Part shown: positions 5,350 to 60,758 of the stretch, in pieces
How the letters are laid out: the number at the start of each line of letters is the position of its first letter
Position numbering within the stretch: the stretch's first letter is position 1
DNA from: Eledone cirrhosa
Taxonomy: Eukaryota
Assembly (NCBI GenBank): GCA_964016885.1
Contig: OZ024742.1
Location: 229,028,001-229,092,000, forward strand
DNA: 64,000 nt
Direction: 5' to 3'
Position numbers and translations under genes: made by a program
Notes under the pieces: generated by a model
The model's database searches: none
Told to the model about the DNA's origin: nothing
What the model saw: the letters and a program-made list of their open reading frames with translations, nothing else

Positions 5350-5560
5350 ACGAAGGAAATGTGGTACGGAACCAGGTGGACCATAATGCACCAAAGTACT
5401 CAATACTTAGTGTAGTAGAGTGGGTAATAGGAACGAGTAGGACCCCGACGGCTGAGCTCAAGCCGTTTCGACGGCTAATTCTGTACTAAATGAACATTTA
5501 GTCCAGAATTAGCCGTCGAAACGGCTTGAGCTCAGCCGTCGGGGTCCTACTCGTTCCTAT
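5350..5560. mobile_element. family H2 palindromic insertion
   Basis: Inverted arms centred ~5492, inside HHR stem II; flanked by (TA)n. Confidence 0.8.
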
Positions 5561-5569: not shown

Positions 5570-5965
5570 TTAATAAAAGGAATTCCAACTTTGTCTGATT
5601 TACTCGTTTTATTTACAATCCTTTAAAATTTATAATGGCATTAGAATGAAATAGTATGGTAGAATATTAAATGTTAAGTGTTAATTGAACAAGTACTTTC
5701 TTGCTTTCGCAATCTTCAGGTTCATATTCTGTGGTGACAGTCAAGTTTGCAATTTTCAACTGTAAAGAGATGGGTAAATTTTGTGCCTTATATACAGAGA
5801 AAAGTGGCTCCAGAATGCTAAATCTTGCAAACTGTATTTCGACCAATCGGTGTGTAGTTTCACTGGATTACTAAAGCTGATTGGTTTAGGCGTCAATAAA
5901 ACGGATTAAAGGATTGTAAATAAAACGAGTAAATCAGACAAAGTTGGAATTCTTTTTATTAATAT
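5570..5965 (-). mobile_element. TA-embedded element, family H4, with inverted terminal segment
   Basis: 5571-5626 is the reverse complement of ~5906-5962; contains the HHR at 5686-5724. Confidence 0.75.
5686..5724 (-). ncRNA. minimal type I hammerhead ribozyme (39 nt)
   Basis: tgaac-CTGAAGA-ttgc-gaaa-gcaa-GAAA-gtac-TT-gttca. Perfect stems I and II (GNRA loop); palindromic stem III AGTACT. Confidence 0.9.
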
Positions 5966-6019
5966 AATCTTCTATACACAATCATACACACCCGTGTATA
6001 TTTCTCTCTCTCTCTCTCT

Positions 6020-6105
<86 letters not shown>

Positions 6106-6231
6106 ACGTACACACATATATGTATGTACGTATACATACTTATATTTAAGTAACAGCCGTACTAAGAATGAGAAATGAAATTTCGTTTCATTTTTTCCGT
6201 TTATATATATATATATATATATGTATATATA

Positions 6232-6864
6232 ATGCAAATTTGGACGGGAACAAAACAGAGAGGCAAACAAATAAAGGTTTATTAGGTTCACGCTCTTGAG
6301 AGTGGGGGGGGGGGACGTTTCGGGAATAAGCACTTCTTCAGGAGAAAATAGGTTAGGAAGAGAGTTCCGAGGGTGTGTGGAGGAGGGGTGGAAATACATT
6401 TAGTAAAAAGGTGGAAGGGGAAAAAATAAAAATAAACGTAAAAATAAACATAAGAATAAACCATAAAATGAACACGTGGTGGATGGGTGTGAGGTATGTA
6501 AGGGTGGTGGTCGGTGTAGTTGAGAGAGGAAGGCGGGGGTCGAAGTGGGGAAGGCTGAAGGTGGTGTTTGTGTATGTGTGTAGGTGTATGTGTGTGTGCG
6601 TCCGTGTGTATGTGAATGTGAGAGTTGGAGGAAGAACGAGGTTCCATGTTCAGGAAAAGGTGTGTGCGTGGGGTGGGGTGTAACTCGGTGTGTGCGTGCG
6701 TGTGGAAAGAGAGGGGTCAGGGGTGGAGGAGGGGGCGTGTGGATTCCGGAGGTTGAGTGTGTATATGTGGAGGTACGGACGTGTGTGTTTTTGTTTATAC
6801 GTGGTGTGGATGTAGGTGGCGTGGTGCGAAAAAAAATGTCAATGTATGTTCGTGGGTAAGTTCC

Positions 6865-6865
<1 letters not shown>
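6232..6865 (-). mobile_element. probable PLE 3' UTR fragment with decayed minimal HHR (6314-6346) and AATAAA
   Basis: Minus strand: pyrimidine-rich tract, then CTGAAGA-agtgcttattccc-GAAACGTC, then aataaa, ending in (TA)n. Stem I partner is lost. Confidence 0.5.
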
Positions 6866-6897
<32 letters not shown>

Positions 6898-7119
6898 GTA
6901 AGTATGCATGTATGTACGTATACATACATATATGTATACAGACGTACAGTCGTATGCATATGTATACATACATGCACACATATATTTATGCACGTATCGG
7001 TTTCCCGAACATTTATTATAATGCTTGGTTTGTTTGTTTGTAAACAAACAAACAGCCCGAATTACGCCGTACAGTGTTTAGGCAACCACGTCACCTTTTT
7101 GTTCAACACTGACACAGGA

Positions 7120-7162
7120 ACGATGTACTAGTTTCAAGCTTATTAGCTATCGTCAGCATCGT
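7120..7162 (-). ncRNA. minimal type I hammerhead ribozyme (inverted copy)
   Basis: Reverse complement of 7387-7429. Confidence 0.88.
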
Positions 7163-7386
7163 ATACCTTCCTGTCAGATGGTTGAACCTTTGAAAGTATA
7201 TACTTTCCTTATGCATATTAACGGCTGAACAGCCTAATGAAATTTCGTTTCATTCTATTCCATTTATCGTTTTCGGTGCGCCCGGCCGACTGAACTCACT
7301 CGATATGCAAATTAAGCTGCTGAGCCGTTAATATGCATAAGGAAAGTATACACTTTCAGACGTTTAACCATCTAGCAAGAAGGTAT

Positions 7387-7429
7387 ACGATGCTGACGAT
7401 AGCTAATAAGCTTGAAACTAGTACATCGT
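7387..7429 (+). ncRNA. minimal type I hammerhead ribozyme
   Basis: acgatg-CTGACGA-t-agct-aata-agct-t-GAAA-ctag-TA-catcgt. Palindromic stem III ACTAGT, GUA triplet. Confidence 0.88.
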
Positions 7430-7725
7430 TCCTGTGTCAGTGTTGAACAAAAAGGTGACGTAGTTGCCTAAACACTGTACGGCGTAATTCGGGCTGTTTT
7501 TTTGTTTACAAACAAACCGAACATTATAATAAATGTTCGGTAAACCTATACGTGCATATATATATATGTGTGCATGTATGTATATATATACATACTACTG
7601 TACGTCTGTATTCATATATGTATGTACGTATACATACATACATACATACATTTAAGTAAGTGTCGTACTAAGAGTGAGAAATGAAATTTCGGTTCATTCT
7701 ATTCCATTGATATATATATATATAT

Positions 7726-8348
7726 AAAATGAGATTAATATCCCCATAGGTACTAAGTACCTACGGAAATATATAGGGTGTCTATAATACATTTGTTGTT
7801 CAATGTTACTAATCTGAGATACCAGAACTATAAAATTGAGATTTATGTTTGCTTGTTCCGCTCATCTCAATTTTATAATTCTAGTATCTCAAATTAGTAC
7901 CATTGAACAACAATTGTATTATAGACACCCTATATATTTCCGTAGGTATTTAGTACCTGTGGGGATATTAATCTCATTTTATGTGTATTCTCCCTCTGTG
8001 TAGAGAAAAAAATGCTGTATCTTGCTGCTATTTTTAGTGGCGTGGCAAACAAGTATATAATATTCCCGCTTTTACTAAAGGCCTGTTTGTGTCTACGTCA
8101 CTTCAACGGCTTGACCTCATACTTCGCGCCGTAGGCGATATATTTACTGACTGTGAGATTTTACGTCCTCTAGAATGGAAATAGCTGTCTGAAGAGCTGC
8201 TCTTTCCGTTGGGAAATTATCTGAATTTCCAATCTTTTGTTAAGCGAAACCGTCGGTAATAGCATTTTGGACAGGTGAATATTTAAATCGTATTTTAATT
8301 TATTTAAAAGATTGTTTAATGTTTGCTTGTTCCGCTCATCTCAATTAT
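7726..8348 (+). mobile_element. family H6: ~474-nt terminally redundant monomer with inverted 5' segment
   Basis: 'atgtttgcttgttccgctcatctcaatt' at 7845 and 8319. 7726-7842 is inverted relative to 7864-7981. HHR at 8184-8263; diverged relative at 53670-53910 (-). Confidence 0.85.
8184..8263 (+). ncRNA. type I hammerhead ribozyme
   Basis: gctgt-CTGAAGA-gct...agc-GAAA-ccgtcgg-TA-atagc. Confidence 0.82.
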
Positions 8349-8387: not shown

Positions 8388-8782
<395 letters not shown>

Positions 8783-9116: not shown

Positions 9117-9118
<2 letters not shown>

Positions 9119-9306
9119 CAACGAGTAGGACCCCGACGGCTGAGCTCAAGCTGTCTTGACGGCTAATTCTGGACAGAATTAGCCGTCGAAACGGCTTGAG
9201 CTCAGCCGTCGGGGTCTTACTCGTTCCTATTACCCACTCTACTACCCTAAGTATTGAGTACTTTGGTGCGTTATGGTCCACCTGGTTCCTTACCACATTT
9301 CCTTCG

Positions 9307-9308
<2 letters not shown>
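9117..9308. mobile_element. family H2 insertion with short inverted 5' segment
   Basis: Inversion junction ~9173 in HHR stem II; 3' end 'cacatttccttcgt' runs into (TA)n. Confidence 0.8.
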
Positions 9309-9352: not shown

Positions 9353-9799
9353 GTGTATTATTAAAAATGCCTTTATTCACAAAGCACTTAATATATTAAG
9401 ATCAACACTAAATTAATATATAATACATAATACTACCTTTCGTACAAATAAACACTTTGCAATGGAACGCATGTAAGTTCCATCTATATTCATGTTGAAA
9501 CACTAACATCCACACATCGAGGTCCTCATACACTAATACATGTACTATAACCCCCTGCATACATACATTCAAACATAAATAGATAGATAAATATATACAT
9601 ACATACACATATATATATATATGCACAAGCCGAAACCGCTTGGTGTCGCAGTTGGTATTTTACATCTCTCTCTCTCTTTCTAAACGCGTATATATATATA
9701 CGTTTTGATATGTAACTAATCGATGAAATGTAGATGTAACATTAAATATAGATTGTTCCTGTTTTTTTCATCTGCAATTGTATATTTGTGGTTGTCTAA

Positions 9800-9888
<89 letters not shown>

Positions 9889-10033
9889 TATATATATACA
9901 CATATATATATATACACATATATACACATATATATATATATACACACATATATATACACATATATATATACACACACATATATATATATATATAACATTA
10001 AATATAGATTGTTTTTGTTTTTTTTCATCTGCA

Positions 10034-10152
<119 letters not shown>

Positions 10153-10945
10153 TGCAGATGAAAAAAAACAAAAACAATCTATATTTAATGTTACATCTAC
10201 ATTTCATCGATTAGTTACATATCAAAACAATGTGTTTAACTAATCTAAAGCACCCAGTTGTTCGAAACTGTGAATCTATACGAAGCTGAATTGTATATCA
10301 TTTCTTTAACATATGGTGCTATTCGACTGAACCCTTCGATTTTCTCATTTGAAAAATCTATTTCAATATTCACTTTTCTATTCAACTAAACGAAAGGACA
10401 GAATTAACTTTTTTGAAAAATTTGATTCTAATGTTTGGTTGAAATGGATACGTAGGATCTCCGTCGTTTCCGACGACGCGTGTTTTAGTTGTTCAATACA
10501 TTAGAAGTCTGGTAGCACGCGAGTTTGTATTTAATTATTTATTAATTTCGTGTTAATTTCCTGTTGTTAACAAAACAATCCTTTCAACACAAAACCGCCG
10601 GAAATCGCGACTGATTCTATGATAGGAAGTTGTTTATTTATGCAGTGTTTGTATTTATAAAAAAAAACAAAAACAAAAACAAAAACAAAAACGCACCTTA
10701 GTTTAATGTAAGAACCTTTGTTATGTGCCAAACACCAGCCTAACAATAAGAAAGTTAGTTATATCACCAAATCCATCCAAATTCTTGATTATTTTCGAAA
10801 TTACTTGAAAATCATAGGACAGTGTATTTAATCAGATAAATGATAAAATTGTTATTTAAGGTGTCACGAAAAAAGTTACTTATAAAAGTGTGTCACTCAC
10901 TAATGTGAAATGCTCAGAAAACACTGCATTATAGGGTAATAAATA

Positions 10946-11120
10946 TTATTGTTTCTACTTTTTGGCACAAGGCCAGTAATTATACCAGTGCATTACTGGT
11001 ACTTTATTTTATGAACCCGGTAAGGATGAAAGGCAAAGTTAACCTCGGCACGATTTGAACTCAGACCGCAAAGGGACGTAACTACATGCTGCAAAGCATG
11101 GCGTCCGACCTTCTACCGAT
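10946..11120 (-). mobile_element. tRNA-derived SINE (Nin/Deu-like core)
   Basis: B-box-like GAGTTCAAATC followed by 'gccgaggttaactttgcctttcatccttac' core; many copies in this window. Confidence 0.8.
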
Positions 11121-11354
11121 ACAAATATAATATTAGTTTTTTGTGTGGAGGCAGGGTGGTTAAGCGGTTCACTTTGCAATCATGAGGTCTTGGTAAGTGT
11201 CATTACCATACTCTTGGGTTAACCCAGGTTTTATCAGTGAGATTATGGAGATGTCGATCCTGACGGCTCTGCCAATTCTGCTCTTCAAGAAACTATAATA
11301 TTAATAACTAGGGGAATAAAGTATGGTTTTAAATTCATCATGTAAATGATGTTA

Positions 11355-17146: not shown

Positions 17147-17529
<383 letters not shown>

Positions 17530-17710: not shown

Positions 17711-19640
17711 GTAATTAGAAACAACATTTTCCTAAATGTGTGGGGGAATACGGAGGAAGTAATCAAATGGTTCTCCACCATTAGTAACCATGGTGCCCTC
17801 AGGTTTGTCCAGTTCGATATAGATTCTTACTACACATCTATATCTCCTATCCTTATGAATAAGGCCCTCATCATGGCCATGCAGAATAGTGATCTAACCA
17901 GATCCCAAGTTGATATAGTTTTAACCGCACGTAAAACCTTAATCTTATTTTAGGAACAATTGTGGACTAGGAAAAACACTAACAACAACTTTGATATCAC
18001 AATGGGATCTGCAGACTCTGCCCAGGTAACTGATTTGTTCGGACTTTACCTAATCCATGAGCTTCATAAGACACTTCCTTACCTTTTCGGTGGGTTATAC
18101 CGCGACGATGCCCTCCTTACCCTTGAGCATAAAAAATTAGTATTTAATGGTACACAGAAGGACCTACGCAAATTCTTTAAAAGTTATAACCTTAATATTA
18201 CTATTGATAAGAATAATAAAACTAAATTTCTTGGATGCAACACTAGATCTGGTAAATAAGACTTACACACCATATCATAAACCTAATGAGAGACTAACTT
18301 ATGTACATACTGGATTTAACCACCCTAAATCAGTACTGAATGTTATTGTTAAGGGAGTATCTAATAGGATCAGCCGTTTATCATGCGGTGAAGATATTTT
18401 CAATTCTAATGCGGATAACGAAGCATTAGCTAAGTCTAGATATAAGAATAAACTATTTTACGTATCTGCTAGCTTCCAATCTAACGTAGCTGGGCATAAT
18501 AATGTTATTACACACAGTATGTCTTTAAATTATAATTATAATGATAACAGTAATAGAACTCTAGATAGGACCCATGTAGTGATTAGCTCAGCCCAGCTTA
18601 GACTGAACGGCCCTAATATGCATCCTCCAAATACTTCTAATGGAACTAATCCATTACACTAATGGAAGTGCGGCGAAATTTGGAAAACACACTCATAGTA
18701 GAGTATTAGATAGGCATATTGACCAATATAATGCGAGAATTTCACGACCAGTATATGGTGAACTTGGTTCCGTATGCCTAGGGGAGAGTAATAACTCTGG
18801 TGGTAACCGGACTCTAGTGGGGAAAAATAGAAAAAGTAGAAGAAGAATGAACACCTTTTTCAACCCACCATACAACTCTGAGGTCTTAACTAATATTCCC
18901 CAAACATTCTTCTTAATCCTAGAAAAGAACTTGCCGCCGGCCAACAGATACCATAGTATATTCAATAAAAACACAATTAAATTATCGTACTCCACTACAC
19001 CTAACCTAGCTTACCACCTGGCACGTACTAATAATCAGAAAATTAGTGTAGGTTTTGAAGATATTAAATCTGTGAATAACTAACAGCAACCTAACACATT
19101 GGCTAATGCGGCACCGCCGATTGCTGACATCACATCTGATGAACACATTACAGGTCAAACGGGTTTGAACAATAGTCCATCCCAAGGTATGAATAACGAC
19201 ACATATCGTAATTGTAATTGTAGAAGGAGTAGAAATTGCCCTTTAAAAGGCAATTGTCTCACGAGGAATATTGTTTATGCATGTGATGTTGTAATAACAA
19301 CCTCCACTAAGACATATGTGGGTTCTACTTCTACAGCTTTTAAAACTAGATTTAACTCCGACAATTATACTTTTAGATATGATAGGCTTAAAAATGCTAC
19401 CTCCCTAGCTAAATATATTCACTCTTTAAAATATGATGGTATAGATTATACACTCAATTGGAGGTTGGTAACTAAATCTCCACCCTACCGCCCCCGAACA
19501 AAACTTGTAACCTCTGCCAGCTTGAGTCTCATACCATAGTTTACTCTAACTGTGAATTACTGAATAGGAAATCGGAGATTTTCTCATCTTGTATTCACAT
19601 GAAACTTAATTCATTTTACCACTATAAACCTATTACATAG
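17711..19640 (+). pseudogene. PLE reverse transcriptase / Zn-finger / GIY-YIG endonuclease, disrupted
   Basis: RT motifs [35 protein letters not shown] and NFLDATLDL...Y.PY.KP....YVH..NHP; linker FNPPYN...IFNKNTIKLSYS; CNCRRSRNCPLKGNC; IVY...YVGST...FK.R; TCNLC..E...LLNRKSEIFSSCIH. Several stops and frameshifts. Confidence 0.92.
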
Positions 19641-21505
19641 TTCTGCTGATGTATCACTCCCCCTTGTGCAGTACCGCTGCTTGACCCTATTGAATTCATA
19701 GGGTATATATTGGTGTAGTCTACTGTGGTGTGGGATTGAATGTTTGGGGTGGTGTAATGCAGTGTGCCTCTGGTGTATTGTAGTGTGGTGTGGTGGGAGG
19801 TGGGGTAGTGCGGTGTTTGGTGGGGTAGGTTTATGGGGTGGGATTGGGTGAGGTTACTGAACTTATAATTTTTCTCTTTATATTCTTTTCTCTTTATTTT
19901 GGTCATAGTCTGATTTAATTACCTATTAGGTGAATAATCAGAGTTATCCCCCTTTCGTTTACAACATGTGTACACGTCATTTCTTTGACAACTAAAACGT
20001 CACCAAAGGATGTGCACAGAGTTTAGTGGCGCTAATTAAAATAAAATGTTCTGAGCCAGTATTAATTTATTTTAATCTTAGTGGTATGTAGACTGTATTT
20101 GTATTTTTATCTTTATTTTTGTATCTATTCCATTTAATCTCTGATTATATACTTGAATTTGACCATATTTAGCAAACATGCTAAGGTATTTAGCGTATTT
20201 AACAACTTGTGCACGAATGTTGATTTCCTTTTGTTTTGTTTAGACTTGTTCGCTATGCTGATCGCAGTTGCTGTGGCCAGAAATTCTATTCACATGTTCG
20301 TGACAGGATGGTGTGTGCAGACTTGGCTTGAAATAATTCTTGAACAATTTTTAATGTTGACCTCTGATTTGTTACATGGAGTGGTTGTTTATTGTAGTAA
20401 TCCAGCATGCATTTTCTTGGGTTATAATGTAATTGTTACGCTTAATATACTACTACGTATATTTAACCCGTGAGGATATGTAAAATATGTAAACAATTAG
20501 TCCTGCTTGTATTGTTTATTATGCATGAATAATAACTGCCAATTACTTTATAACAACTTTTATAACAACTAATATAATGAGACTGCGTCAACTCTTTCGC
20601 ACACTAGCCTAAATCTGCTTGTGCATAGCTGCTTTTTATGCCTTGAATCTATTTACTTGTTTCACTCAGCAAAACCATATAATAACTATATTTACTTGTG
20701 AGGCATGTGCCTTTGTGATACCTTTCTATATACTTGTGAACACCAATTGGCTACCTAGTCTGTGTACCTTCTGATATACTTTGTGTATATATATTATGGT
20801 AGTCATTCGAATTACTGTGGTCTTTTGGGTTGTACCAAAAAGATCTCTTCACGCCTGTATATAGACTACTGAGATCCTACTCCTTCGTGTTGCTAGGAAC
20901 TGTGCTTTCTCTAAGTGCTCATAACATATAACTTTTTCTCAATTTATTAAATATTTCTAATCTTTTTTAATTTAGTTTTATCATATTATTATATTATTTT
21001 ATTATCATTTATTATTATTTTAATATACTTTTATATTACTTTATTGTATTTAATTTATTTTTAGTATTTTTTATTTAATTATTTTACTTTATTTTATTTT
21101 ATTTTATTTTATTTTACTTTATTTCATTTCATTTTATTATCTTTATTATTATTTTTATCTTTATTTTTATATTTTTTATTACTTTAATATAATTTATATT
21201 ATGTTTTAACATTTGCCTGTATTTCTTTATGTATGTTTTATATATTTTTTAATGTATTTTTTATGTATTTTATGTATTTATTATGTACTTTTTAATGCTT
21301 TCACACTTTTTCATTTTACTTTCTGCATTTTTGAATGCCATCTACTGTGTCTTTATCTTGTTGAATCCAATTGTGTTTTGGTATTTTGCAGTTATGCTTA
21401 GTAACGCCAATATGAACCTCTTTCTTAGCGATCTCCAATTCCCCTATTATTTTTTCTGATTGTTTGTGTGACTAATTTTTGTGGAGCTTATACTCTACAC
21501 TGTAT

Positions 21506-21563
21506 TTATTAAGCTCTGATGATTCCTGCCAAAAGGTTAGGATGAAGCATTGTTAGTGAATAA
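21506..21563 (+). ncRNA. type I HHR at PLE 3' end (A15.1->G decayed)
   Basis: ttattaagct-CTGATGA-t-tcct...agga-t-GAAG-cattg-TT-agtgaataa. Confidence 0.7.
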
Positions 21564-21618
21564 AGACTGTTTCAGTATGTAAGCGTTCTTTGGTTTCTGT
21601 TGCATATATATATATATA

Positions 21619-23580: not shown

Positions 23581-23990
23581 TTAACGGTGCTGCAATAGAA
23601 TGTGGGTTTTTAGCCCAGCCAATGATCTAAAATGTCTTGGACAGAGTTGGCAATCTAAATATTCACTGGTAATAGCCGGCTGTGGTTGGAGTTCATGTAC
23701 TTTTGCATGTTGTTTGAGCCCTCCTACTGATTTACATTCTCTACCACATGTTTGGCAGGCATGATGAGTAGCATCCAACAGCAACCTGGTAGTCAACCAC
23801 AGGTTATGACTGCGAAGATGACTTTCGAGTGCAGCTTTGCTTAGGCAGAGTCTCGCACAGACGCTGCATGTCAGCACCATAGGAGGACCCTCGCCGTCTG
23901 GAAATGCAACAGCAATGCCCTTTCTCACATCCCTTTTTACTTTCTCGTATGCGATTCGAGATGCCTCAAAGGCAACTTTCCCCTCCTATA
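23581..23990 (-). pseudogene. RTE-type LINE ORF C-terminus with three C2H2 zinc fingers
   Basis: CSVCARLCLSKAALESHLRSH, CQTCGRECKSVGGLKQHAKVH, CQLCPRHFRSLAGLKTH. Similar finger and shared tail/UTR motifs at 32010-32620. Confidence 0.65.
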
Positions 23991-24674: not shown

Positions 24675-25259
24675 ACAGTAGGCTTATAAAGTCCGTATGT
24701 AAACGTAAATGTTAATAAATTCAGATGTCTATATGATAGAAATGCAGTTTAATTTTAATATAAAAGGGCGGTGGATTGGCAGTATCGGTAGAGGGTCGGA
24801 CACGATGCTTTGCAACACACAGTTACGGCCCTTTATGATCTGAGTACAAATCTCGCCGCGGTTAACTTTGCCTTTCATCTTTACGGGGTCGATAAAATAA
24901 AGGAGCAGTAATACACTGGGATAATTGCTGGTCTTGTGCCAAAAGTAGAATCAATTTTAATATAAAACGTTATTTATACGACATTCATCCAATGCAGCCC
25001 AATTTTCTAGCAATCTATCTGATACGTGACACATCGTGCTAGTTGGTTTTATAACTCGTCGAATAACTCGTTGAAAACATTTCCCAGCGGCTAATTCTTT
25101 ATAATAAAATATAATTAATTCGTAAGATTTTAAATATCACCATGTCTCGCAACTATATAAAGACAGCTTTTTATGAAGTTTACGTTGAATTTTTATCATT
25201 TGTACAACTAAAGTTATTAACATTTAAATTTGCACATGGACTTTATAAAATCTCAGTAT
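24675..25259. mobile_element. decayed Tc1/mariner-like MITE containing a SINE (24766-24955, +)
   Basis: Imperfect TIR 'ttataaagtcc...aaatgttaataa' at both ends, bounded by TA. Confidence 0.55.
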
Positions 25260-26762: not shown

Positions 26763-29275
26763 ATGTCTTTATAACAGTAATACAGATAGATAGACTTATA
26801 ACTATAAAAAAAATAAAACAATAGATCCACAAGAAAGACGGCTGCAAGCTGCTCGAGAAAGGGTGTGCAGTTATAGAGCTCGAATGAGACAGAAACAGCG
26901 AGAAGTAATAGAAAGAGAAAAAAGACGACACCAACAGAGACATGTCGAATTGAATGATGAACAGAGGAATATTGGTTTAGAGCAAGCTAGACTAAGTCAA
27001 CAGGAGAGAAGAAATAATATCCAATTAGAAGAACGTCAAGAATATTTAAAGTAAACTAAACTAAGGCAGCAGGAGAGAAGAGAGAATATGCTTCAAGATG
27101 AACGTCAATAATATTTAGAGAAACAAAGTATCAGATAACAAAAAAAGAAGAGATAATATGCAATAAGATGAGTGTGAAGAATATTTGGAGCATGATAGAC
27201 TAAGACAAGAAAAAAGGAGAGATCCTATTCATAAGAATGAACGAGCATATTTTCTCGGGTAGCAGAGAAAGGCACTTAGACGTAGAATAGAAAACATGAA
27301 TGCTGAACAACTGCATAATTTCAGATATAGTAGAATGTATAATGAGCGTCTAAGGAGAAATGGCCCAGCAATTAATATTAACGGTGACGTAGAAGTTAGT
27401 ATTGGTTATATGAATGTGTTGTGCAATCATTGTGGAGCGTTGAAAGTTAGAAATGAAAGTTACAACTGCTGTAATAAAGGAAACGTTGTGCTGCCTCCAT
27501 TCTAAATACCCACTGAGAGACTGAAAACTATCTTTGGAGGAGAAGGCCGAGAAACAGTTGCATTTCGCAGGAACATCTGCAATTACAACTGTGCATTTTC
27601 TTTCGTTTCGTTTGGTGTTAAACTTACATTGCTACCTGACAGAGGCATGTATTGCTTTCGCACTCAGTGCCAAATATATCACACCTCTGTACCCTGCAGA
27701 AAATACACCATAATATGGCCAGTTATATATTATTGACACAAATGAAGCAGTGCAACACAGATTGGAAGCACCGCCAAATATTGCATGCTCACCGCAAACA
27801 ATGATAAATGAGGTGTTGAATGAATGTAATCCATATATTTTGAAGTGTATAATAAAATGCATGCCCCCAAATAAGAAGAACAGCAAAGAGCACAAAGAGA
27901 AAATAGTCTCGTACAGAACTGTGAATTAAGATTTAGAAGATGATCAGATTTATCAACTATCAATGAAATATCTGCTGTTTTTGAGGGGGATAGATTGTGC
28001 ACCACCTGTACACAAAGATATTGTCATCTACCCTAAATACAATCCTCCTGAGATAACACCATATACTTAATGCCACTTGGCTCCTATGACCTATCCTTTA
28101 TTGTTTCCAATTTGGGTGGCATAGTGACATGTAACATGCAGAGGAATGCAGAACCCGCGCCCACAATAAACTGATAATGCAGGAGTATTACAGAGGAGGA
28201 TTTAGTGTGATACATAAGGCACGAAAAATATTTCAGCAGTATTTAGTGGATATCCATGAGAAAGCAGTGGGATGCAGGCTTCAAGCTTTGAGGGAAAATC
28301 AACCTCAATTACTAGTAGTTAAGAATAATGGTTTAATGGATTATCTAATCAGAGACGCAGAAGATAACATACATGTGCCAGTAACGTTGCCATCGTCCTT
28401 CACTGGCATTCCAAGAAACACGAATCAGTACTTTCAGGATGCTATGACAAATGTTGCAAAATATGGCAAGCCAGATCGTTTTATATCTTATACATAAAAC
28501 CCTAAATGCTCTGATATTCAAAATAGTCTAAATCAAAATGAGGCAGTGGAAATAGACCAGATTTAGTTGCCCAATATTTAAAGCTCAGCTTTCTGAAATT
28601 ATGAAAGAAAGTAAAAAATGACAAATTCTTGGCATGTCAGTGGCTCATGTTCACATCATTGAGTTTCAAAGAAGATGGCTTCTTCACTGCCATATGTTGG
28701 TCATTTTAAGGGACACTTCGAAACAGAGAAGACATTGACAGAATCGTGTTAGCAGAAATACCTACACTGGAAGACGAAAAGTTTATGATCCATGGGTCAT
28801 TTGGTTCTGAAAATCCTTTTCCATACATGCGAAATGTATATTAAAGTGCTTGGACCGGTTAGCGTCTACACTGCTGCCGAGAGGTAGAACTATGCACAAT
28901 TTATTTAAATGATATCTTCCACTAACAGAGACCAGTGTATATAATGTATCTGGCTCATCTGGCCATGCTAATTACTTACTGAACCTGGATCTCATAATAC
29001 TGAACGAGGCGTCTATGATTCCTTCCTATGCAATTCATGTCATTTACCTTCAAGTCGTCACTGGTGCCATTGAAATGTTTGGAAGAAAGGTTTCGCTTCT
29101 GGGAGGTGGCGTGAGGCAAGTGCTGGCAATATTAACAAGGGGTACCCATGAAGCCACATTAGAAATATTCCTTAAAAGCTCACATCTGTGGCACTTCTTT
29201 CAACGTATCAGAATGAGAGAAGATCTGAGAGGAGAGAGTGAGAGAGAGAGAGGGGGGGAGAGAGGGGGAGAGAGA

Positions 29276-29341
<66 letters not shown>

Positions 29342-30168
29342 GAAGTGACTAGTACATCTTGGCAATGGAACAAACACTTCGAATTGAAAACTGAATATGA
29401 ATGATGTTGAATTGATTCTATTCTCATGTGTAAATGACTTTTAGTGAAAGAAACTGTCAGCGTAACAGAGGAATAAAAGAAAATAACGGGTGTAAGTTTA
29501 TCTCCCTAGAATGCTGATTGCCTATTGATTAACGAAGATGTTCCCAGACAACTACCCGGTAACAGTCATACTTATTATAGTACAGATACAGTGATCGCTG
29601 ATGAACCTTCAGAGGCTGACAGATTTTCTACTGAATTTCTGAACTCGCTCAAAACTTCCGGGATGCCGCCTCAGAAACTCAATAATAATTCTTCTACGGA
29701 ATATTTCAATTCAGAACGGATTATGCATTGACATAAGATTAGCAAGAGTAGGGTTTCATCAACATTCCATCGATGCTTTTCATATCAATGGTCCTTTGAT
29801 GGGCAGGCGTGTTTTGATCTCAAGACTGCAATTAGACCCAAGTGATCCTAACATCCTATTTGTCTTTGGAAAGAGCCCAGTTTCCAGTAAGACTGTCCTT
29901 TGCTATAACAATCAACAAGAGCTAGGCTCATACATACAATAAAGTAGGTCGGTTTCTTCCTAAGCCAGTATATAGCCATGGACAATTGTTTATTGCTTTT
30001 TCAAGAGTACGCGGAGAGTCTGATGTAAAAATTAAAGTATTGAATGCTGATAAACAAGGGAGGCAATGTAATAAAACCGTGACAAAGAACATCGATATTA
30101 AGATAAATCTGAGCCCAGTTAAAGAGTTGCAAGTTGCAATGGTATTGAAACTAATCACGTACACATAA
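26763..30168 (+). pseudogene. Helitron RepHel (coiled coil, Zn finger, HUH Rep, Pif1 helicase), decayed and internally deleted
   Basis: IGYMNVLCNHCGA...CCNKG.V.LP; FQQYLVD; LPSSFTG.PR...Q.FQDAM..V.KYGKPD.F; HIIEFQRRWLLHCH (Rep motif 2, ~28652-28693); FG.KV.LLGG..RQ.L; EFLNSL..SGMPP; QFPVRLSFAITINKS; HGQLFIAFSRV. Confidence 0.9.
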
Positions 30169-36685: not shown

Positions 36686-37715
36686 GACTAGAAATATTTC
36701 AGTATACTAGTGCCGGACTAGAAATATTTCAGTATACTAATGCCAGGCTAGAAATCTTTCAGTATACTAGTGCCGTACTAAAAACTTCCAGTATACTAGT
36801 GCTGGACTAGAAATATTTCAGTATAATAATGCCAGGCTAGAAATCTTTCAGTATAATAATGCCAGGCTAGAAATCTTTCAGTACAATAATGCTAGGCTAG
36901 AAATCTTTCAGTATAATAATGCCAGACTAGAAATCTTTCAGTATAATAATGCCAGGCTAGAAATCTTCCAGTATAATAATGCCAGACTAGAAATCTTTCA
37001 GTATAATAATGCCAGGCTAGAAATCTTTCAGTATACTAATGCCAGGCTAGAAATCTTTCAGTATACTATTTCAGTATATTAATGCCAGGCTAAAAATCTT
37101 TCAGTATACTATTTCAGTATACTAATGACAGGCTAGAAATCTTTCAGTATACTAATGCCAGGCTAGAAATCTTTCAGTATACTATCTCAGTATACTAATG
37201 CCAGGCTAGAAATCTTTCAGTATACTAATGCCAGACAAGAAATCTTTCAGTATACTAATGCCGGCTAGAAATCTTTCAGTATACTAATGCCAGGCTAGAA
37301 ATCTTTCAGTATACTAATGCCAGACAAGAAATCTTTCAGTATACTAATGCCAGGCTAGAAATCTTTCAGTATAATAATGCCAGGCTAGAAATCTTTCAGT
37401 ATACTAATGCCAGGCTAGAAATCTTTCAGTATACTATTTCAGTATACTAATGCCAGGCTAGAAATCTTTCATTATAATAATGCCAGGCTAGAAATCTTTC
37501 AGTATACTAATCCCAGGCTAGAAATCTTTCAGTATACTTGTGCCGTACTAAAAACTTCCAGTATACTAGTGCTGGGCTAGAAACTTTCAGATTACTTGTG
37601 CTGGACTAGAAATCTTTCAGTAAACTAGTGTCAGATTAAAAGTATTTCAGTATACTTGTGCCAGACTAGAAATATTTCAGTATATTAGCGCCGGATTAGA
37701 AACATTTCAGTATGT
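36686..37715. repeat. 30-bp minisatellite (~33 units)
   Basis: Unit 'ctagaaatctttcagtatactaatgccagg'; edge units more diverged; occasional 12-nt 'tttcagtatacta' duplications. Confidence 0.95.
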
Positions 37716-38138: not shown

Positions 38139-38355
38139 ATTTCTATTTTAGGTTCACGGGGAGGATATTTCGATTAAATCGACCTCAACAGTTAACTGGC
38201 AATATATTTTTACGAATCCCGGAAAGATGAAAGGCAAAATTGACCTCAACATGATATGAACTAAGAATGTAAAGAATTGGAATAAATTCAGCAAACTATT
38301 TTTATATAGAAAAAAGTGTGTGTATGGATGAAGAAGACAAATTATATAAACATAT

Positions 38356-38541
38356 AATTGTTTCTACTATTGGCACAAGGCCAGAAATTATCCAGTGTAT
38401 TACTTGTACTTTATTTTATCGACCCCGTAAGGATGAAAGCAAAGTTAACCTCGGCGGGATTTGAACTCAGAATGGCAAGGGCCGTGACTCTATGCGTCAA
38501 AGCATGGCATCCGACCCTCTATCAATTCTGCCAATCCACCG
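38356..38541 (-). mobile_element. tRNA-derived SINE, full length
   Basis: Matches family consensus. Confidence 0.85.
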
Positions 38542-38869
38542 CATATAATGAAGAGAGAAATGGGGACGTTACACAAAGAAGATATTTTAAAAGTTTCTGT
38601 TTAAATGTTTCCTCGTTCTTCCACGCTCTCTGTTTTCTTGTGTTCGTCTCGTAATTTCTCATAAAGTATACTCACAGATGAATGCCAGCAAAATAGACAA
38701 CACTAAGACCGGGATAAAGGAAAACAATGCATACTAGATTCAAAGAAACTGGCAGGATGGAGATTTGAAGAATAAGCTACGAGCATAGCATTTGGGTGAG
38801 GGGATACCCTCGAACAACCTGAAGAGAATATGGTTTGCTCAGAACCATGGCACAAATAGAATGTAAAAA

Positions 38870-43184: not shown

Positions 43185-43701
43185 GATCCCGTCGAGGTTG
43201 ACTTTGCCTTTCATCCTTACGGGGTCGATAAAATAAAGTACCAGTAATGCACTAGATATTTGCTGGCCTTGTGCCTAAAGTAGAAACAATTATAAATAAT
43301 AGGTGCGATATAATAAGGGGGTGCCTTGGCAGTATCGGTAGAGGGTCGGACGCCATGCTTTGCAACATAGAGTTACGCTCGTTTACGGTCTGAGTTCAAA
43401 TCCCGCCGAGGTAAACATTGCCTTTCATCCTCACGGGGTCGATAAAATAAAGTACCAGTAATGTACTGAGGTAATTGCAGTCCTTGTACCTATAGTAGAA
43501 ACAATTATAAAGGCGGTGGATTACCTGTATCAGTAGAGGGTCGGACGCCATGCATTGCAGCATGGAGCTACGGCCCTTTCCGGTCTGAGTTCAAATCCCG
43601 CCGAGATTAACTTTGCCTTTCATCCTCACGGGGTCGATAAAATAAAGTACCAGTAATGTACTGAAATAATTGCTCGCCTTGTGACAAAAGTACAAACAAT
43701 T
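43185..43701 (+). mobile_element. three tandem SINE copies (43185-43291, 43317-43506, 43511-43701)
   Basis: Head-to-tail repeats of family consensus. Confidence 0.85.
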
Positions 43702-43941
43702 ATAAATAATAGTTGAGAAAACCGACGGAAACGGAAACATTGTGGACAGAGGCATTCTCGGCGACTTGAACACCGCATATCTCCGATACAGGGCGAGTGC
43801 GTTAAGATCTATACTAAGGAGCCGCTAGCTCTTAGAAGATTTTTAGCCTGTAGCCAAAATTGTCAACAACGCCGTTGACTTAGGAATCTTTGGGAAAATT
43901 TTAAATTTGAAGTGTGTGCGTCTCAACCCAAATGTCCATAA

Positions 43942-44130
43942 TAATTGTTTCTACTTTAGGGACAAGGCCAGCAATTACGCAGTGCATTACTGGTACTTTA
44001 TTTTATCGACCCCATAAGGATGAAAGGCAAAGTCAACCTCGACGGGATTTGATCTCAGATCGTAAAGGGACGTAACTATGCTGGAAAGCATGGCGTCCGA
44101 CCCTCTACCGATACTGCCAATCCACCGCCC
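43942..44130 (-). mobile_element. tRNA-derived SINE, full length
   Basis: Matches family consensus. Confidence 0.85.
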
Positions 44131-44502
44131 TGCGTAGTAGTTCACTATAGAAGATAGTTGAGAAAATCGGATAAATTCCACTCGAAGAGTACAACAAGGG
44201 ATAGCAGTCTGTTACATAGTTAACCCACAATTTCAGTTGGTATTTATTTTCAGCTAAATGAAGTGAAACTATGTGAAATGAAGTCTCTCTTGCTCAAGAA
44301 AACAATGCGCTGTCAAATCCGTATACTGACAATCATGAGGCCTGAAATCCGAATGCCGTATGCATTCATTTTTAAACAGTTTAATAAATATAAAGTAAGC
44401 TTGGCCTGTGTATTGTGAGAAAAGAATAGTTCTGAGGAATATAAGATTTTATAATCTAAAATGTTAAAACTTCGTTGAGAGCCATCTAACATACATAAAA
44501 TT

Positions 44503-44845: not shown

Positions 44846-45841
44846 ATAACATGCATATAAAACAACAAAAACGATACCAGGATGTACTTTGCACTACTGC
44901 CCAGTTTTATATTATTTACCAAACTGGATAATGTGATATTAGAAATGATTAGAAATCATTAAAGCGTCAAACAAATGCCTTAAAGTATTTCTTCCGACTC
45001 TTTACAGTATCAGTTCAAATCCCATTGCGGGCACCTTTGTCTTTCGTTCTTCCGCGGTCGATAAAGTAAAGTACCAGTACTGGTGTCAATTTAATCGACC
45101 CCATCTTCCAAATAGTTGGGCTAATTAAAAACAAAATGGACCAATAACTCCCCACCGTAAGTGACAAGCGGCGATGCTTGGGCATTTTTTAAAGTTGCAG
45201 AACCCATTCTTCTCCAGGTCTGCATCCAGCCAACTTCTTCTAAGAGAGAGCTAGATAGATAGATAGAGAGATGGAGAAGGGAGAGAGATGGGGGAAATAG
45301 AGAAAGATAGAGAACCGACCTTAAAAGACTGAACTGCAAAGTGGACTTCGGTGAGATTTAAACTCAGACTGCTCAGATCCTTCTATCCTACATTATAATA
45401 ACTTTATAAATTCGCTGACTTCTCCCAACTATATAGATTGATAAACTTTCTTTATAATATACTCAACCCATTGACATGGGTAAGTGAGATTTAATTTGTG
45501 GTTATAATGTAATAATAATGACTGGAAAAGAACATTTAACACTCTGCTTAATAGACTATCAATTATTATCTTTGCCAGTTAATCAGTTAATAAAATTTAA
45601 ACTATTATCATTAGAAGCTACTGGGTGGTTGATTTGCTGAATCGATACATTACCGAGTGTAATGCCTCAGGGTATAGGTTTCAGAGTTCAAAGTCAGCCG
45701 AAGTCAACTTTTCTTTCCATCCTTTTGAGATCAATAAAGTAAAGTATCAGACAAGTACTGAACTCGATATAATCGACTTTATTCTCTCTAGAAGATTGCT
45801 GGCTTTGTGCCTAAATTAGTAAATATTATTTGAAGTAACTA

Positions 45842-46031
45842 GGGCGGTGGATTGGCAGTATTGGTAGAGGGTTGGATGCCATGCTTTGCAGCGTAGAGTT
45901 ATGACCCTTTATGGTCTGAGTTCAAATCGCGCCGAGGTTAACTTTGCCTTTCATCGTTACGGGGTCGATAAAATAAAGTACCAGTAATGCACTGGGATAA
46001 TTGCTGGCCTTGTGCCTAAAGTAGAAACAAT
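45842..46031 (+). mobile_element. tRNA-derived SINE, full length, TSD 'attatttgaagtaactag'
   Basis: Family consensus flanked by the direct repeat at ~45825-45842 and ~46030-46047. Confidence 0.88.
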
Positions 46032-46677
46032 TATTTGAAGTAACTAGAAGTTGGTGGATTGGAGGTCAGACAAAATATCGTGTTCTTAAGGTTTCTGAGT
46101 TTGATACATTAAATACCATTCAAGTAGTGGATCGATTTAATCTAAACCTACCCTGCGCTCCAGCAAATTGTTGACCCACATGCCTAAATTTGAAACTAAT
46201 ATATATCACGGCGATTTATTTTATCGATGCCAGAAAAAGCAAATTCTATCCCGGCGATATTTTAACTCGAGCCAGATATAGCAAGAACGCACACTCTGCG
46301 AAATATTCATTCTAAATATGCTTTACATTCACACACGATTTCCAAAGTAAATTCATGTCTGTTCTCAAGTATTGTAGCAACCTACGATAATAATACTTAT
46401 TCTAAATATACAACACGCCATTCTTGAGTCATCAGAAACCACCTGACACAGAAGGAAGTATAATTATATAATATTATTTCAATTCTTAACCATTTTACTC
46501 TCCATTAACCTGTGATCTTTCCTGGAATATTTAATATTATATCAGCTGCCCTTTATACAACATCTTATAGTTATATTAACGGAGTTCAAAATATTCTCTA
46601 ATAAATATAATATAATATAATATAATATAATATATATAATATATAACACACACACGCATATATATATATATATATAA

Positions 46678-48934: not shown

Positions 48935-49198
48935 ATACACACACACATACGCGCACACACACACACACACATATATACACACATACACACAAACACACAC
49001 ACACTTATAAGATGATTCCAGATTCACTATCGAGTTTGACCACGTTTTGAACCACTTCCTACCTTCATTCAAAGATGCATGCATCCATACACACTTAGAC
49101 ACACAAATACACACACACACACACATACACACATACACACACACACATACACAAACATATATATACACCGTGTTTGTTGTGTATTATATGCTATATAA

Positions 49199-49384
49199 GG
49201 GCGGTGAATTGGCAGTATCGGTAGAGGCTCGGGCATGCTTTCCAGCATAGTTACGTCCCTTTACGATCTGAGTTCAAATCCCGCCGAGGTTAACTTTGCC
49301 TTTCATCCTTACCGGGTCGATAACATAAAGTACCAGTAATATACTGGAATAATTGCTGGCCTTGTGCCAAAAGTAGAAACAATT
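49199..49384 (+). mobile_element. tRNA-derived SINE, probable TSD 'attatatgctat'
   Basis: Matches family consensus. Confidence 0.85.
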
Positions 49385-50167
49385 ATATGCTATTTTCGTC
49401 TCTTCATATATTTAAATGTTGGTGTAGAGTTGGTAACTAATGGGAATCTTGTTATAATCGACTAAATTTCGCTGAAGGTCCGCTTTCTCACGGCCACTCT
49501 CCAGTGGTTGAAAAATATTAAAAAGAAGAATGAAATAAAATTATTGAACTCACGAACGTACGAAGAATTGGCATGTTGGATTTTTGAACAAATATTTTAT
49601 TTTCCGTTACTCCAATCTATTCGGTTGCCAAGCAATATGATGTACCCGTAATTCAAAGGGCCAACCATGTTACACAGTGTCATGCAGAATATATTCGAGA
49701 ACTCTGTTATAGGTACAAATGTGCATGGATTTCTTAGTGACGTTGACGTTAATTTCACGAGCAGTCTGTTCCTTTGATCAATCAACTGGAACGTTCGTTA
49801 TCGAAACTAATGGCCAACACATCCCTGATTAGAAATATCCAATATGCAATACATCGATTAATACATTGAGATTTTCGCCACATTTTGCAAGCTACACTAT
49901 TTCATGTAGGATATTAGTTATTTAAATGAGACAGTTGAGTGATAAATTTCACCTCCAAAAACAAGTATTTATTCGTATAAGGCCATTAATTCGGACATCG
50001 TCAATTTGTCATTAATGTTATATTTACGAGATTATAAATACTTTGCTGGACTTCTACTAATTTGTTAACATCTACACACACATACATACACACAGATACA
50101 CACACACACATACATACACACACATACACACACACAAACAAACAAACACACTCACACGCACACACAC

Positions 50168-51117: not shown

Positions 51118-51886
51118 AAAATCAGCGATTCTCGGATTTCGGCAGTGGTCGAAAACAAAGCGAAACGCAATATCGGAATTATGCTGGCAAGCGCTCCATG
51201 GACCAAATACAGACCAGAACAATAATCATAGGTTATAAAGGCCATACAAACTGAGATGGCGGTCAAGAAGCCATCAACCACCTAAGCCAAAAAGATGAGG
51301 CAGGCCAAACAGGCCAAATAAAATAATTGAAATATTTACCCGGACCCTCGGAAAAGATGGTTTCTGCGACACCTAAATCAATTATACTGCTTGCTTAAAA
51401 TAATAAGCTTTTGATATAATGATCGAACAAGGCTGTCACTTCGCCAACAGGTATTTTGTTCTACGCCAGGGTGCGGAATCACGCAGTGGTATGTAGTAGT
51501 AAAACCACGTATGTACTAGTAAAACCCCAGATTTTGGCAGATGAATTCAATAAGTGTGAAATTAATGCAATAATTGCAAAAACTGCACAAATCAAATTAA
51601 GCTCTTGACAGGGTAGTTTTTAAATAAACTTAAGAAATAGAATTATCTAAAAAATTAACTGGTTAATTGCTAGACCCGGGAGATTAATACTAATATAATT
51701 TCAGTGAGATTCTTCGAATTTCGGCAGTGGTCGAAAACAAAGCGAAACGCAATATCCGTGTTATGCTGGCAAGCGATCCATAGACCAAATAAAGACCAGA
51801 GCAATAAACATAGGGTATAAAGGCCAAACAAACTGAGATGGCGGTCAAGAAGCCATCAACCACCTAAGCCAAAAAGACGCGGCAGT
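51118..51886 (+). mobile_element. ~582-nt terminally redundant element with decayed HHR-like motif (51532-51581)
   Basis: ~180-bp direct repeat ('tcggcagtggtcgaaaac' at 51139 and 51721). ttttgg-CAGATGA...GAAA-tta..taa-TT-gcaaaa. Confidence 0.6.
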
Positions 51887-51889
51887 AGT

Positions 51890-52660
51890 ATGTATATATA
51901 TACATACATGCACACATATATATATGTACTCATGGACGGTGCTGCTCGATAGCTAGTAAGCTTGAAACTAGTGCATCGTTCCTTTGTCAGTGTTGAACAA
52001 ATGGGCAACGATGGTTGCTAAACACTGTACGGCTTGGTTCGGGATGTTTGTTTACAAACACACCGAGCATTGTGATAAATGTTCGATGAGTCCATGCGTA
52101 CATATATATATATATATGTGTGCATGTATGTATATATATACATACTACTGTACGTCTGTATACATATATGTATGTACGTATACATACTTATATTTAAGTA
52201 ACAACCGTACTAAGAGTGAGAAATGAAATTCGTTTCATTTTTACCGTTTATCGTTTTCGGTGCGCCCGGCCGATTAACTCACTCAATATGCAAATTAGGC
52301 TGCTCAGCCGTTAATATGCATAAGGAAAATATATACTTTCAGACGTTCAATCATCTGGCAGGAAGGTATACGGTGCTGACGATAGCTAATAAGCTTGAAA
52401 CTAGTACATCGTTCCTTTGTCAGTGTTGAACAAAAGGGCAACGATGGTGTTAAACACTGTACGGCTTGGTTCGGGATGTTTGTTTACAAACACACCGAGC
52501 ATTGTGATAAATGTTCGGTGAATCCATGCGTACATATATATATGTGTGCATGTATGTATATATATACATACTACTGTACGTTTGTATACATATATATATG
52601 TACGTAAACATTCTTATATTTAAGTAACAGCCGTACTAAGATTCGTTTCATGTTTCCGTT
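51890..52660 (+). mobile_element. family H5 tandem copy (~433-nt period) with HHR at 52370-52412
   Basis: Two head-to-tail units; acggtg-CTGACGA-tagctaataagctt-GAAA-ctag-TA-catcgt. Confidence 0.85.
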
Positions 52661-52714
<54 letters not shown>

Positions 52715-52724
52715 AAAATGTATG

Positions 52725-52823
52725 ACCCCGACGGCAGAGCTCAAGCCGTTTCGACGGCTATTTCTGGACTAAAGTAAGAGATTTTCTAGTCTGGTAAATA
52801 AATAGCCGAACTTTTCAAGGGGT
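52725..52823 (-). ncRNA. type I HHR with U3-A8 variant core (family H2)
   Basis: acccc-TTGAAAA-g-tt-cggctattt...aaatagccg-t-c-GAAA-cggc-ttgagctct-gccg-TC-ggggt. Confidence 0.75.
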
Positions 52824-52932
52824 ACTTCCTTATATCGGAAGATTGAAGTTGTCAAGATGATTGCTCAAAATTTGTCTGCTACGAATTTTGACCAATCCTC
52901 TTGACAACTACAATCTTCCCATATAAGGAAGT

Positions 52933-59062: not shown

Positions 59063-59082
59063 ATATATATATATAGTAATAA

Positions 59083-60059: not shown

Positions 60060-60602
60060 TGTATGTATGTATACTTACATACATATATGTATAGAGACGC
60101 ACAGTAGTATGTATATACATACATACATGCACACATACATATATGCACGTATCGGTTTACCGAACATTTATTATAATGCTCGGTTTGTTTGTTTGTAAAC
60201 AAACAAACAGCCCGAATTACCCGTACAGTGTTTAGGCAACCACGTCACCTTTTTGTTCAACACTGACACAGGAACGGTGTACTAGTTTCAAGCTTATAAG
60301 CTATGGTCAGCATCGTATACCTTACTGCCAGATGGCTGAACGTCTGAAAGTATATACTTTCCCTACGCACACCAACGGCTGAGCAGCCCAATTTGCATAT
60401 CGAGTGAGTTCAGTCGGCTGTTTGTTTGGGCTGTTTGTTTGTTTACAAACAAACAAACTGAGCATTATAATAAATGTTCGGTAAACCGTACGTGCATATA
60501 TGTATGTGTGCATTATGTATTTACATACTACTGTGCGTCTGTATACATATATGTATGTACGTATACATACTTACATTTATAAATATATATATATATTCAT
60601 AA

Positions 60603-60633
<31 letters not shown>

Positions 60634-60710
60634 AATATATATATATATATAAATGGAATAGAATGAAACGAAATTTCATTTCTCACTCTTAGTACGGCAC
60701 TTACTATTCC

Positions 60711-60712
<2 letters not shown>
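60060..60712 (-). mobile_element. family H5 copy with inversion; HHR at 60274-60316 mutated (CTGACCA)
   Basis: Homologous to 6895-7708. Confidence 0.8.

Positions 60713-60758
<46 letters not shown>

Follow-up and report, generated by a model that had tools for sequence, protein, structure and literature searches.

A candidate PLE-mobilised retrozyme in the genome of Eledone cirrhosa

The 64,000-nt stretch of Eledone cirrhosa DNA analysed here (the window) carries, at four loci, a short non-coding repeat with a predicted hammerhead ribozyme, which we call H5. We conclude that H5 is probably a non-LTR retrozyme, non-autonomous and mobilised by Penelope-like elements (PLEs). The protein that copies it in trans would combine RT and GIY-YIG domains, target (TA)n and most likely belong to the Hydra clade. 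That PLEs mobilise retrozymes has been proposed in print on the grounds of co-occurrence and pLTR homology (bioRxiv 10.64898/2026.07.22.740005; PMC7229834). PLE insertions are described as having 5' truncations, partial tandems, an inverted 5'-truncated copy and a 30-40-bp tail, often at a single end, and PLEs of the Hydra and Naiad clades target (TA)n (PMC8557442). All of these features (5' truncation, partial tandem, inverted head-to-head copy, optional one-end tail and (TA)n target) are present among the H5 insertions.

The repeat unit and its four loci

H5 is a repeat unit of 433-444 nt, for which 7265-7708 serves as the reference (p1-444). Its last 54 nt (p391-444; 7655..7708, forward strand) contain a hairpin, are followed by (TA)n and form a tail bracketed by two 3' end positions, E1 (p384-390) and E2 (p444). 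Probes comprising the non-microsatellite body and the tail match four sites alone, at 6100-6202 (locus D), 6898-7708 (locus A), 51883-52660 (locus B) and 60061-60714 (locus C), in agreement with an earlier reading made from the sequence only, and with these probes we found no fifth locus in the 64-kb window. Weaker nhmmer hits, which cover the microsatellite-rich part of the profile alone, were not counted. Eight segments were mapped across the four loci.

Locus A holds a full 444-nt unit (p1-444; 7265..7708, forward strand) that is non-coding, with ~37% GC and a longest ATG ORF of 40 aa. The final 29 nt of an upstream unit (p416-444; 7236..7264, forward strand) are joined straight to its p1, forming a wrap-around junction; the terminal ~28-mer previously noticed at 7238 and 7681 is accordingly a 29-mer repeated at 7236-7264 and 7680-7708, 28/29 identical and with a period of 444. 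That reading had overlooked an inverted arm without tail (p47-390; 6898..7238, reverse strand), although its 344 nt of unit amount to nearly half of the interval flagged (6895..7708). The outer end of this arm, at E1, adjoins (TA)n, the inversion joint shows 3 nt of microhomology (AAT), and the two arms differ at 25 of 324 columns.

Locus B is a partial tandem (51936..52660, forward strand) of p123-444 followed by a full unit with a 14-nt tail deletion, and its E2 end runs into (TA)n. The tandem reported at 51890-52660 is borne out, with a 433-nt period between two GAAACTAGT words (51964 and 52397). An inverted 54-nt piece ending near p336 (51883..51936, reverse strand) overlaps by 3 nt (CAG) with an unrelated partial-tandem repeat at 51119-51885, to which it is fused and which itself adjoins (TA)n, has a period of ~580 (199 aligned columns) and contains no hammerhead that we could find. 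The fusion is suggestive of a single insertion in which the template switched from one RNA family to another. Locus C consists of an inverted arm without tail (p21-387; 60061..60418, reverse strand), whose outer end adjoins (TA)n, and a forward arm, also without tail (p224-~390; 60425..60582, forward strand), whose E1 end runs into (TA)n; these arms have three private variants in common and differ at 5 of 143 columns. Next to them, with (TA)n on both sides, lies a piece made up of the tail alone (p391-444), in the orientation opposite to that of the adjacent arm and followed by a 9-nt forward 3'-end stub (60652..60714, reverse strand). Locus D, within (TA)n, is a 5'-truncated 3'-terminal fragment with an E2 end (6100..6202, forward strand) that represents the final ~105-128 nt of the unit.

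The copies fall into two subfamilies, A/C and B/D (beta), which are 12-16% divergent in long segments as against 8-11% between A and C segments. The wrap-around junction (..CCRTT|TATCG..) is identical at two of the four loci, in two subfamilies and without a TA spacer, and was therefore already present in the template. The partial tandems at loci A and B reach 1.7 units at most.

Two hammerhead-like cores recognised by eye lie close to these loci. One, at 6314-6341 (reverse strand), is in a segment nested between loci D and A (6228-6864) and presumably resembles the hammerheads of Penelope/Poseidon repeats; the other, at ~59938-59990 (forward strand), just precedes the TA run that holds locus C.

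The 3' ends of the eight segments are mostly fixed, four lying at E2, three at E1 and one, that of the inverted piece at locus B, near p336, while the 5' ends all differ (8/8) through variable truncation. This combination of fixed 3' ends with variably truncated or inverted 5' ends is as expected from PLE target-primed reverse transcription. Each of the eight ends scored at E1 or E2 (those of seven segments and of the 9-nt stub) touches (TA)n or is 1 nt away from it, against a background of 4% of positions within 10 nt of a downstream run; with (TA)n as the flanks, target-site duplications are unreadable at the H5 loci. Placing 3' ends uniformly on a 440-nt unit (4 nt short of the 444 nt used for segment mapping), and with the stub left out of the counts, 7/8 ends fell within two 10-nt windows in 7 of 200,000 simulations, and the reduced case of five ends was reached in 215 of 200,000. 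Under a null restricted to TAT words the corresponding counts were 4355 (7/8 ends) and 6252 (5/5 ends) of 100,000, a p of ~0.04-0.06 that makes the clustering marginal. None of the observed 3' ends falls in the part of the unit that is richest in TA.

The sequence-only reading had taken the copies for permutations of one another. Instead of being circularly permuted, they have fixed 3' and varying 5' ends: D is a 3'-terminal fragment, C is two arms plus a flipped tail, and B ends where A and D end. Mapping copy ends onto the unit, as that reading had proposed, nevertheless places a wrap-around junction at two of the four loci, so the copies are not all colinear fragments of one longer linear element.

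It is highly improbable that H5 is a DNA-level repeat (a fold-back MITE, a Helitron or Helentron derivative or a satellite) carrying its motif by chance, or an assembly chimera. Helitrons, Helentrons and MITEs are recognised by fixed 5' and 3' termini or by terminal inverted repeats in all copies, whereas H5 copies start at no fixed 5' position, have two alternative 3' ends and lack a terminal inverted repeat common to all. The hairpin near its 3' end and its internal microsatellites do, we presume, resemble those of Helentron-derived repeats, and Helitron protein fragments are present in the window at 28135-29939 (forward strand; Helitron_like_N, E 1e-14, and PIF1 helicase, E 1.3e-09). The differences between the two arms of locus A (25/324 columns) are too many for a read chimera, and a strict scan of both strands of the 64 kb found the complete hammerhead motif at H5 and one other site only, which speaks against chance.

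We also consider it quite unlikely that H5 is no more than a pseudo-LTR, the ORF of its autonomous PLE having been lost to 5' truncation in four copies. The pLTRs of PLEs do bear type I hammerheads (PMC4209133), PLE copies are mostly truncated (PMC8557442) and retrozymes derive from pLTRs (bioRxiv 10.64898/2026.07.22.740005), but upstream of p1 stands the unit's own tail, with the same junction in two subfamilies and no ORF sequence, and the doubled unit contains no ORF >40 aa. H5 as an autonomous PLE, encoding RT and GIY-YIG, was rejected because H5 has no such ORF, and no pLTR of an autonomous partner matching H5 was found in the 64-kb window.

H5 has sequence-level features by which retrozymes are recognised, namely a head-to-tail unit of 150-450 bp, a type I hammerhead motif, no coding capacity and GC <50% (37-38%). 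Two consecutive units with complete ribozymes, which define an 'active' retrozyme according to Li et al., occur at none of the four loci; at locus B this is because the first ribozyme is altered in its core and cleavage triplet. All four copies have the appearance of dead-on-arrival progeny; an array that served as their source may be present beyond the window. No Pol III A or B boxes were found on the H5 sense strand.

The window as a whole has 34% GC, an N count of 0 and many (TA)n, (CA)n and (ATAC)n runs. Its other contents include a ~190-nt dispersed repeat that we take to be an octopus SINE (10930-11122, 24750-24960, 38350-38542, 43186-44131 and 45841-46037, with further copies at 49182-49389, 59074-59290 and elsewhere), a C2H2 zinc-finger ORF fragment, possibly a LINE end (23584-23985, reverse strand), and a minisatellite with a 30-bp unit and phase shifts of 13 nt (36688-37713). 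No tRNA genes were found in the window.

The predicted ribozyme and the RNA template

The forward arm of locus A contains a predicted type I hammerhead (7387..7429, forward strand; stem I ACGAUG/CAUCGU, core CUGACGA, GAAA) with the motif CUGACGA...GAAA-CUAG-UA. Stem I has 6 bp, with helix I extendable via two internal loops, and stem II has 4 bp upon a U-U mismatch, a pair found at the same place, the base of helix II, in the axolotl ribozyme HHR_Amex2 (PMC7229834). Stem III is the palindrome ACUAGU, as the sequence-only reading had recognised (ACTAGT), and the predicted cut follows 7423 (GUA), equivalent to p159. The hammerhead is intact in three of five copies, the one just described (7393+), that of the locus A inverted arm (7156-; 7120..7162, reverse strand) and the second at locus B (52376+; 52370-52412, forward strand). 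In the other two (51936+ and ~60310-) the core is altered, reading CUGACCA at locus C.

Several results count against this ribozyme. Rfam gave no match at the gathering threshold in the whole window; at E<=10 it returned 85 matches for 6800-7800, none of them a hammerhead, all below the gathering score and mostly microRNA models on the TA-rich part. With five related sequences, too few for such an analysis, none of 20 pairs of the hammerhead fold had changed on both sides and RNAalifold found covariation at 0 of 49 pairs. Between subfamilies the hammerhead differs at 1 of 43 positions as against 24 of 265 elsewhere, which is not significant (p=0.22).

Hammerhead-like sequences also occur outside H5. 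A further compact hammerhead, its stem III again a palindrome, lies at 5719 (reverse strand), within the head-to-head insertion 5571-5966. A near-perfect palindrome at 53329-53656, with arms 100% identical over 159 nt, has a hammerhead-like motif in each arm (53555+ and 53435-) and is probably a very young insertion.

Folding energies fit a dimer-type ribozyme. A double hammerhead formed by two copies is predicted at -20.2 kcal/mol, close to the cofold minimum of -20.4, and a monomer with a single stem III pair at -1.7 kcal/mol, as against -7.1 without stem III and -8.5 for the non-catalytic minimum. Since formation of stem III would require two copies, we propose that the ribozyme can cut multimers only. 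By the definitions of Cervera 2014 it is, as read from its sequence, a canonical metazoan type I hammerhead, a kind that functions in dimeric form when its loop 3 is palindromic (PMC4209133). Of the earlier description as a 'dimer-type minimal HHR', then, the first half agrees with the energies and the second does not hold. A min-HHR in the sense of Cervera 2014 lacks the helix III insert and has a helix II of 7-8 bp, an extra base after position 9 and G10.1-C11.1, and is ruled out by the 4-bp helix II on U-U, the 6-bp helix I and the palindromic loop 3 of H5. The further statement that such ribozymes cleave efficiently as dimers is true of axolotl retrozymes (PMC7229834) but not of PLE minimal hammerheads, which are poor even as dimers (PMC4209133), or of Xenopus retrozymes, in which only 1/9 dimers showed cleavage (bioRxiv 10.64898/2026.07.22.740005).

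Four of the eight segments cross the ribozyme cleavage site, that at locus B crossing two over 726 nt, and none of the eight has its 5' end at p159. Therefore a cleaved linear monomer was not the template, and cDNA that passes through intact ribozyme sites points to either a circle or an uncut multimer. The proposal of reverse transcription from a circular or multimeric RNA, made in the sequence-only reading, stands to the extent that the junction and the read-through call for a circular or more than unit-length template; permutation, its evidence for a circle, does not.

If the template was circular, which we hold to be slightly less than an even bet, dimer cleavage would generate p160-p159 monomers, a host ligase would close them, and a PLE RT would start at E1 or E2 and roll past the junction. 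Mussel, coral and axolotl retrozymes accumulate as RtcB-ligated circles (PMC7229834). All 24 informative columns either split alpha from beta or mark out the two C arms, and no informative site pairs a B unit or a C arm with another locus; a homogeneous tandem, however, would yield an identical pattern, and without a conflicting site this test of template heterogeneity does not separate circle from multimer. A stable circular fold is predicted, with z of -4.3 and -6.1 against 40 shuffles (the A fold covering 440 of 444 nt, the unit length also used for the informative sites), but the opposite strand is equally stable (z -4.9) and the pairing owes much to a self-complementary microsatellite hairpin. 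Also against a circle, uncut RNA was the main substrate of the Poseidon PLE enzyme in vitro, where ribozyme cleavage was dispensable and ribozyme mutants inserted normally (PMC11167929).

The same experiments favour an uncut linear multimer, for which we would put the chances at a little under one half. Read-through transcripts of a tandem locus would here be the template, and the ribozyme would be slow, protein-dependent or vestigial, in keeping with the weak activity of PLE hammerheads (PMC4209133), with the single cleaving dimer among the nine from Xenopus and with cut sites traversed in 4/8 segments, none of which ends at p159. Against it, the H5 ribozyme is built like those of retrozymes that cleave and circularise, and 3/5 copies are intact.

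Inverted arms and tails

The arrangement seen at the H5 loci is not confined to H5. The window contains 28 local inverted pairs, 17 of which are insertions arranged head-to-head that have (TA)n at an outer end; the other 11 were excluded, ten for having no end <=1 nt from (TA)n and one (9702-10228) for a TA run mid-way. In 15 of the 17 insertions there is a one-sided extension of 46-108 nt, on the opposite side. In the remaining two the tail is on neither arm, and an exact tail-only piece lies flipped just beyond the TA run, at 60652-60705 in H5 locus C and at 53069-53145 in the insertion 52713-53145 of a family we call F2. No insertion has two tails (0/17), and asymmetry in at least 15 of 17 would be rare if each end were chosen independently (p=0.0012). 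The extension is confirmed as a repeated tail for H5, for F2 and for the families at 8389 and 22528, and by a 78% match at 56-101; in single-copy insertions it is assumed to be the tail. Family F2 comprises five head-to-head (TA)n insertions (1271-1427, 5350-5557, 9118-9307, 17203-17420 and 52713-53145) with a tail of exactly 77 nt, which is on one arm in four of them and flipped in the fifth. PLE-like anatomy thus recurs in unrelated families of the window. A further family (1557-1974 and 62110-62782) forms a partial tandem, 62110-62303 being repeated at 62596-62789, that ends in (TA)n.

The inverted arms could have arisen by fold-back self-priming of one cDNA (or from an antisense template), resolved by an endonuclease cut at E1, a serious rival explanation but, in our view, the less probable one. 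Self-priming has been proposed for head-to-head palindromes of PLEs, which carry an optional tail on one inverted pLTR (PMC3846280), and it would also yield one tail per insertion. Many palindromes in the window have a 0-10-nt centre and arms that are 91-100% identical, and the tail-less arm of locus A is contained entirely in the tailed arm. However, the F2 insertion at 1271-1427 has a tailed arm of ~18 nt and a tail-less arm of 63 nt, which is impossible from fold-back of the tailed arm; the second arm of locus A continues beyond the longer TA runs around p290-325 to terminate at E1; and the left arm of locus B includes a different repeat family.

Priming from both target ends is the origin of the inverted arms that we prefer. 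Purified PLE protein cuts and extends both target strands, and PLE RT has two adjacent RNA start sites that bound the tail (PMC11167929). The anatomy of the junctions can be read off the DNA, and from it we infer transcription, the identity of the helper and dual priming. A tandem source locus would be transcribed into multimeric RNA, which a (TA)n-targeting PLE protein would capture, and its endonuclease would nick both strands within a (TA)n run. Reverse transcription would be primed by one target end at E2 and by the other at E1, in each case aided by a short TA(T) match, and the two truncated cDNAs would be joined at their inner ends via microhomology, of which the inversion joints show 3-5 nt. 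The template would be, with about equal probability, a re-ligated circle or an uncut multimer. Against this scheme stand the marginal clustering under the TAT null, the one 3' end near p336 that fits neither E1 nor E2 and the absence of detectable similarity between H5 and the PLE described below. In addition, the 54-nt tail of H5 exceeds the published 30-40 bp, and the TAT match we suppose for H5 contrasts with the Poseidon enzyme, which starts without target homology (PMC11167929).

An extended reading, which we think unlikely, makes H5 a retrozyme with circular RNA and takes its insertions to reflect a rule followed by PLEs that target (TA)n: both strands would be primed on one RNP, flanking the tail, so that each two-armed insertion receives exactly one tail, as in 17/17 here. 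Where the primed ends remained linked by a short (TA)n duplex, the tail would come to lie flipped beside a tail-less palindrome, the arrangement found in H5 and in the unrelated family F2.

A possible helper and known systems

The window also contains a decayed, 5'-truncated PLE of autonomous type in a (TA)n run (17711..21600, forward strand), with RT fragments followed by a C-terminal GIY-YIG endonuclease. A CxCx5C motif precedes the GIY-YIG domain, as in the Hydra type, and the RT motifs align by eye with those of Hydra-1_Obim. Pfam recognised none of its five protein fragments; the endonuclease fragment had one unnamed relative among 385 candidates, and for the RT fragment there were 864, likewise unnamed, at E<=0.001. 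Because these relatives are unnamed and Atlas gave no result, the Hydra assignment rests on by-eye comparison of motifs with PMC8557442. A Neptune assignment was dropped, the CxCx5C motif agreeing with the description of Hydra. The element (17711-~21600) also has a long Asn-rich linker and, near 21515, a degenerate hammerhead-like motif seen by eye. No similarity was detected between H5 and this PLE, which therefore shows the kind of helper and not the actual helper.

H5 resembles the Hydra-clade EN+ PLEs in its (TA)n targets, 5' truncation, partial tandems, inverted upstream copy and one-sided tail, and in having a hammerhead within the terminal repeat (PMC8557442). It differs from them in its lack of an ORF, in its 54-nt tail and in having no match to the Hydra-type copy of the window. 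For Hydra-1_Obim, the listing gives a preference for (TA)n and a 3' hammerhead with a 7-bp helix II and a 4-bp helix III, unlike the ribozyme of H5 (PMC8557442 and its supplement), and two H5-specific motifs are absent from the text of that supplement, which is line-wrapped and incomplete. With Poseidon PAc of Anolis, H5 shares AT-rich targets and, on our reading, two adjacent RT starts bounding a stem-loop tail and the extension of both strands (PMC11167929). PAc, however, is autonomous, has a different ribozyme and starts without target homology (PMC11167929), whereas the E2 end of H5 and both ends of F2 have a short TAT match to (TA)n.

Among metazoan non-LTR retrozymes, those of mussel measure 350-390 bp and those of coral 220-245 bp, and axolotl has Rtz_331 and Rtz_353 (PMC7229834). 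H5 is like them in being a non-coding head-to-tail unit in the 150-450 bp range with GC <50% and a type I hammerhead whose palindromic helix III is very short (PMC7229834). Their self-paired fold may also have a counterpart in H5, whose predicted fold is not specific to one strand. It is unlike them in forming partial tandems only and in its PLE tails, inverted arms and (TA)n targets, features that the available text of PMC7229834 does not mention. Animal retrozymes have been argued to be non-autonomous PLE derivatives, and for the pLTR-derived retrozymes of vertebrates the conclusion on origin and mobilisation is the same as ours for H5 (bioRxiv 10.64898/2026.07.22.740005). That study, mainly of vertebrates, builds on co-occurrence and pLTR homology, to which H5 adds the anatomy of junctions.

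Neither the class of element nor its dimer-type ribozyme nor a one-sided tail is new, and the H5 family may already be catalogued in repeat databases. In the literature searched, which covers few subscription journals, we found neither the H5 family nor any cephalopod retrozyme reported, nor did we find flipped tails or a strict one-tail rule described. As a retrozyme-type unit with the full insertion signature of PLEs, H5 provides more direct structural support for PLE mobilisation of retrozymes, and, being small and well defined as an RNA, with its start sites mapped to E1 and E2, it lends itself to testing whether the template is circular or a multimer left uncut. What deserves following up is the one-tail regularity together with the flipped tails: if the circular-RNA and one-tail reading were true, junction evidence would tie retrozyme circles to PLE enzymes, and insertions of this kind would offer a genome-scale readout of the second-strand step of PLEs.
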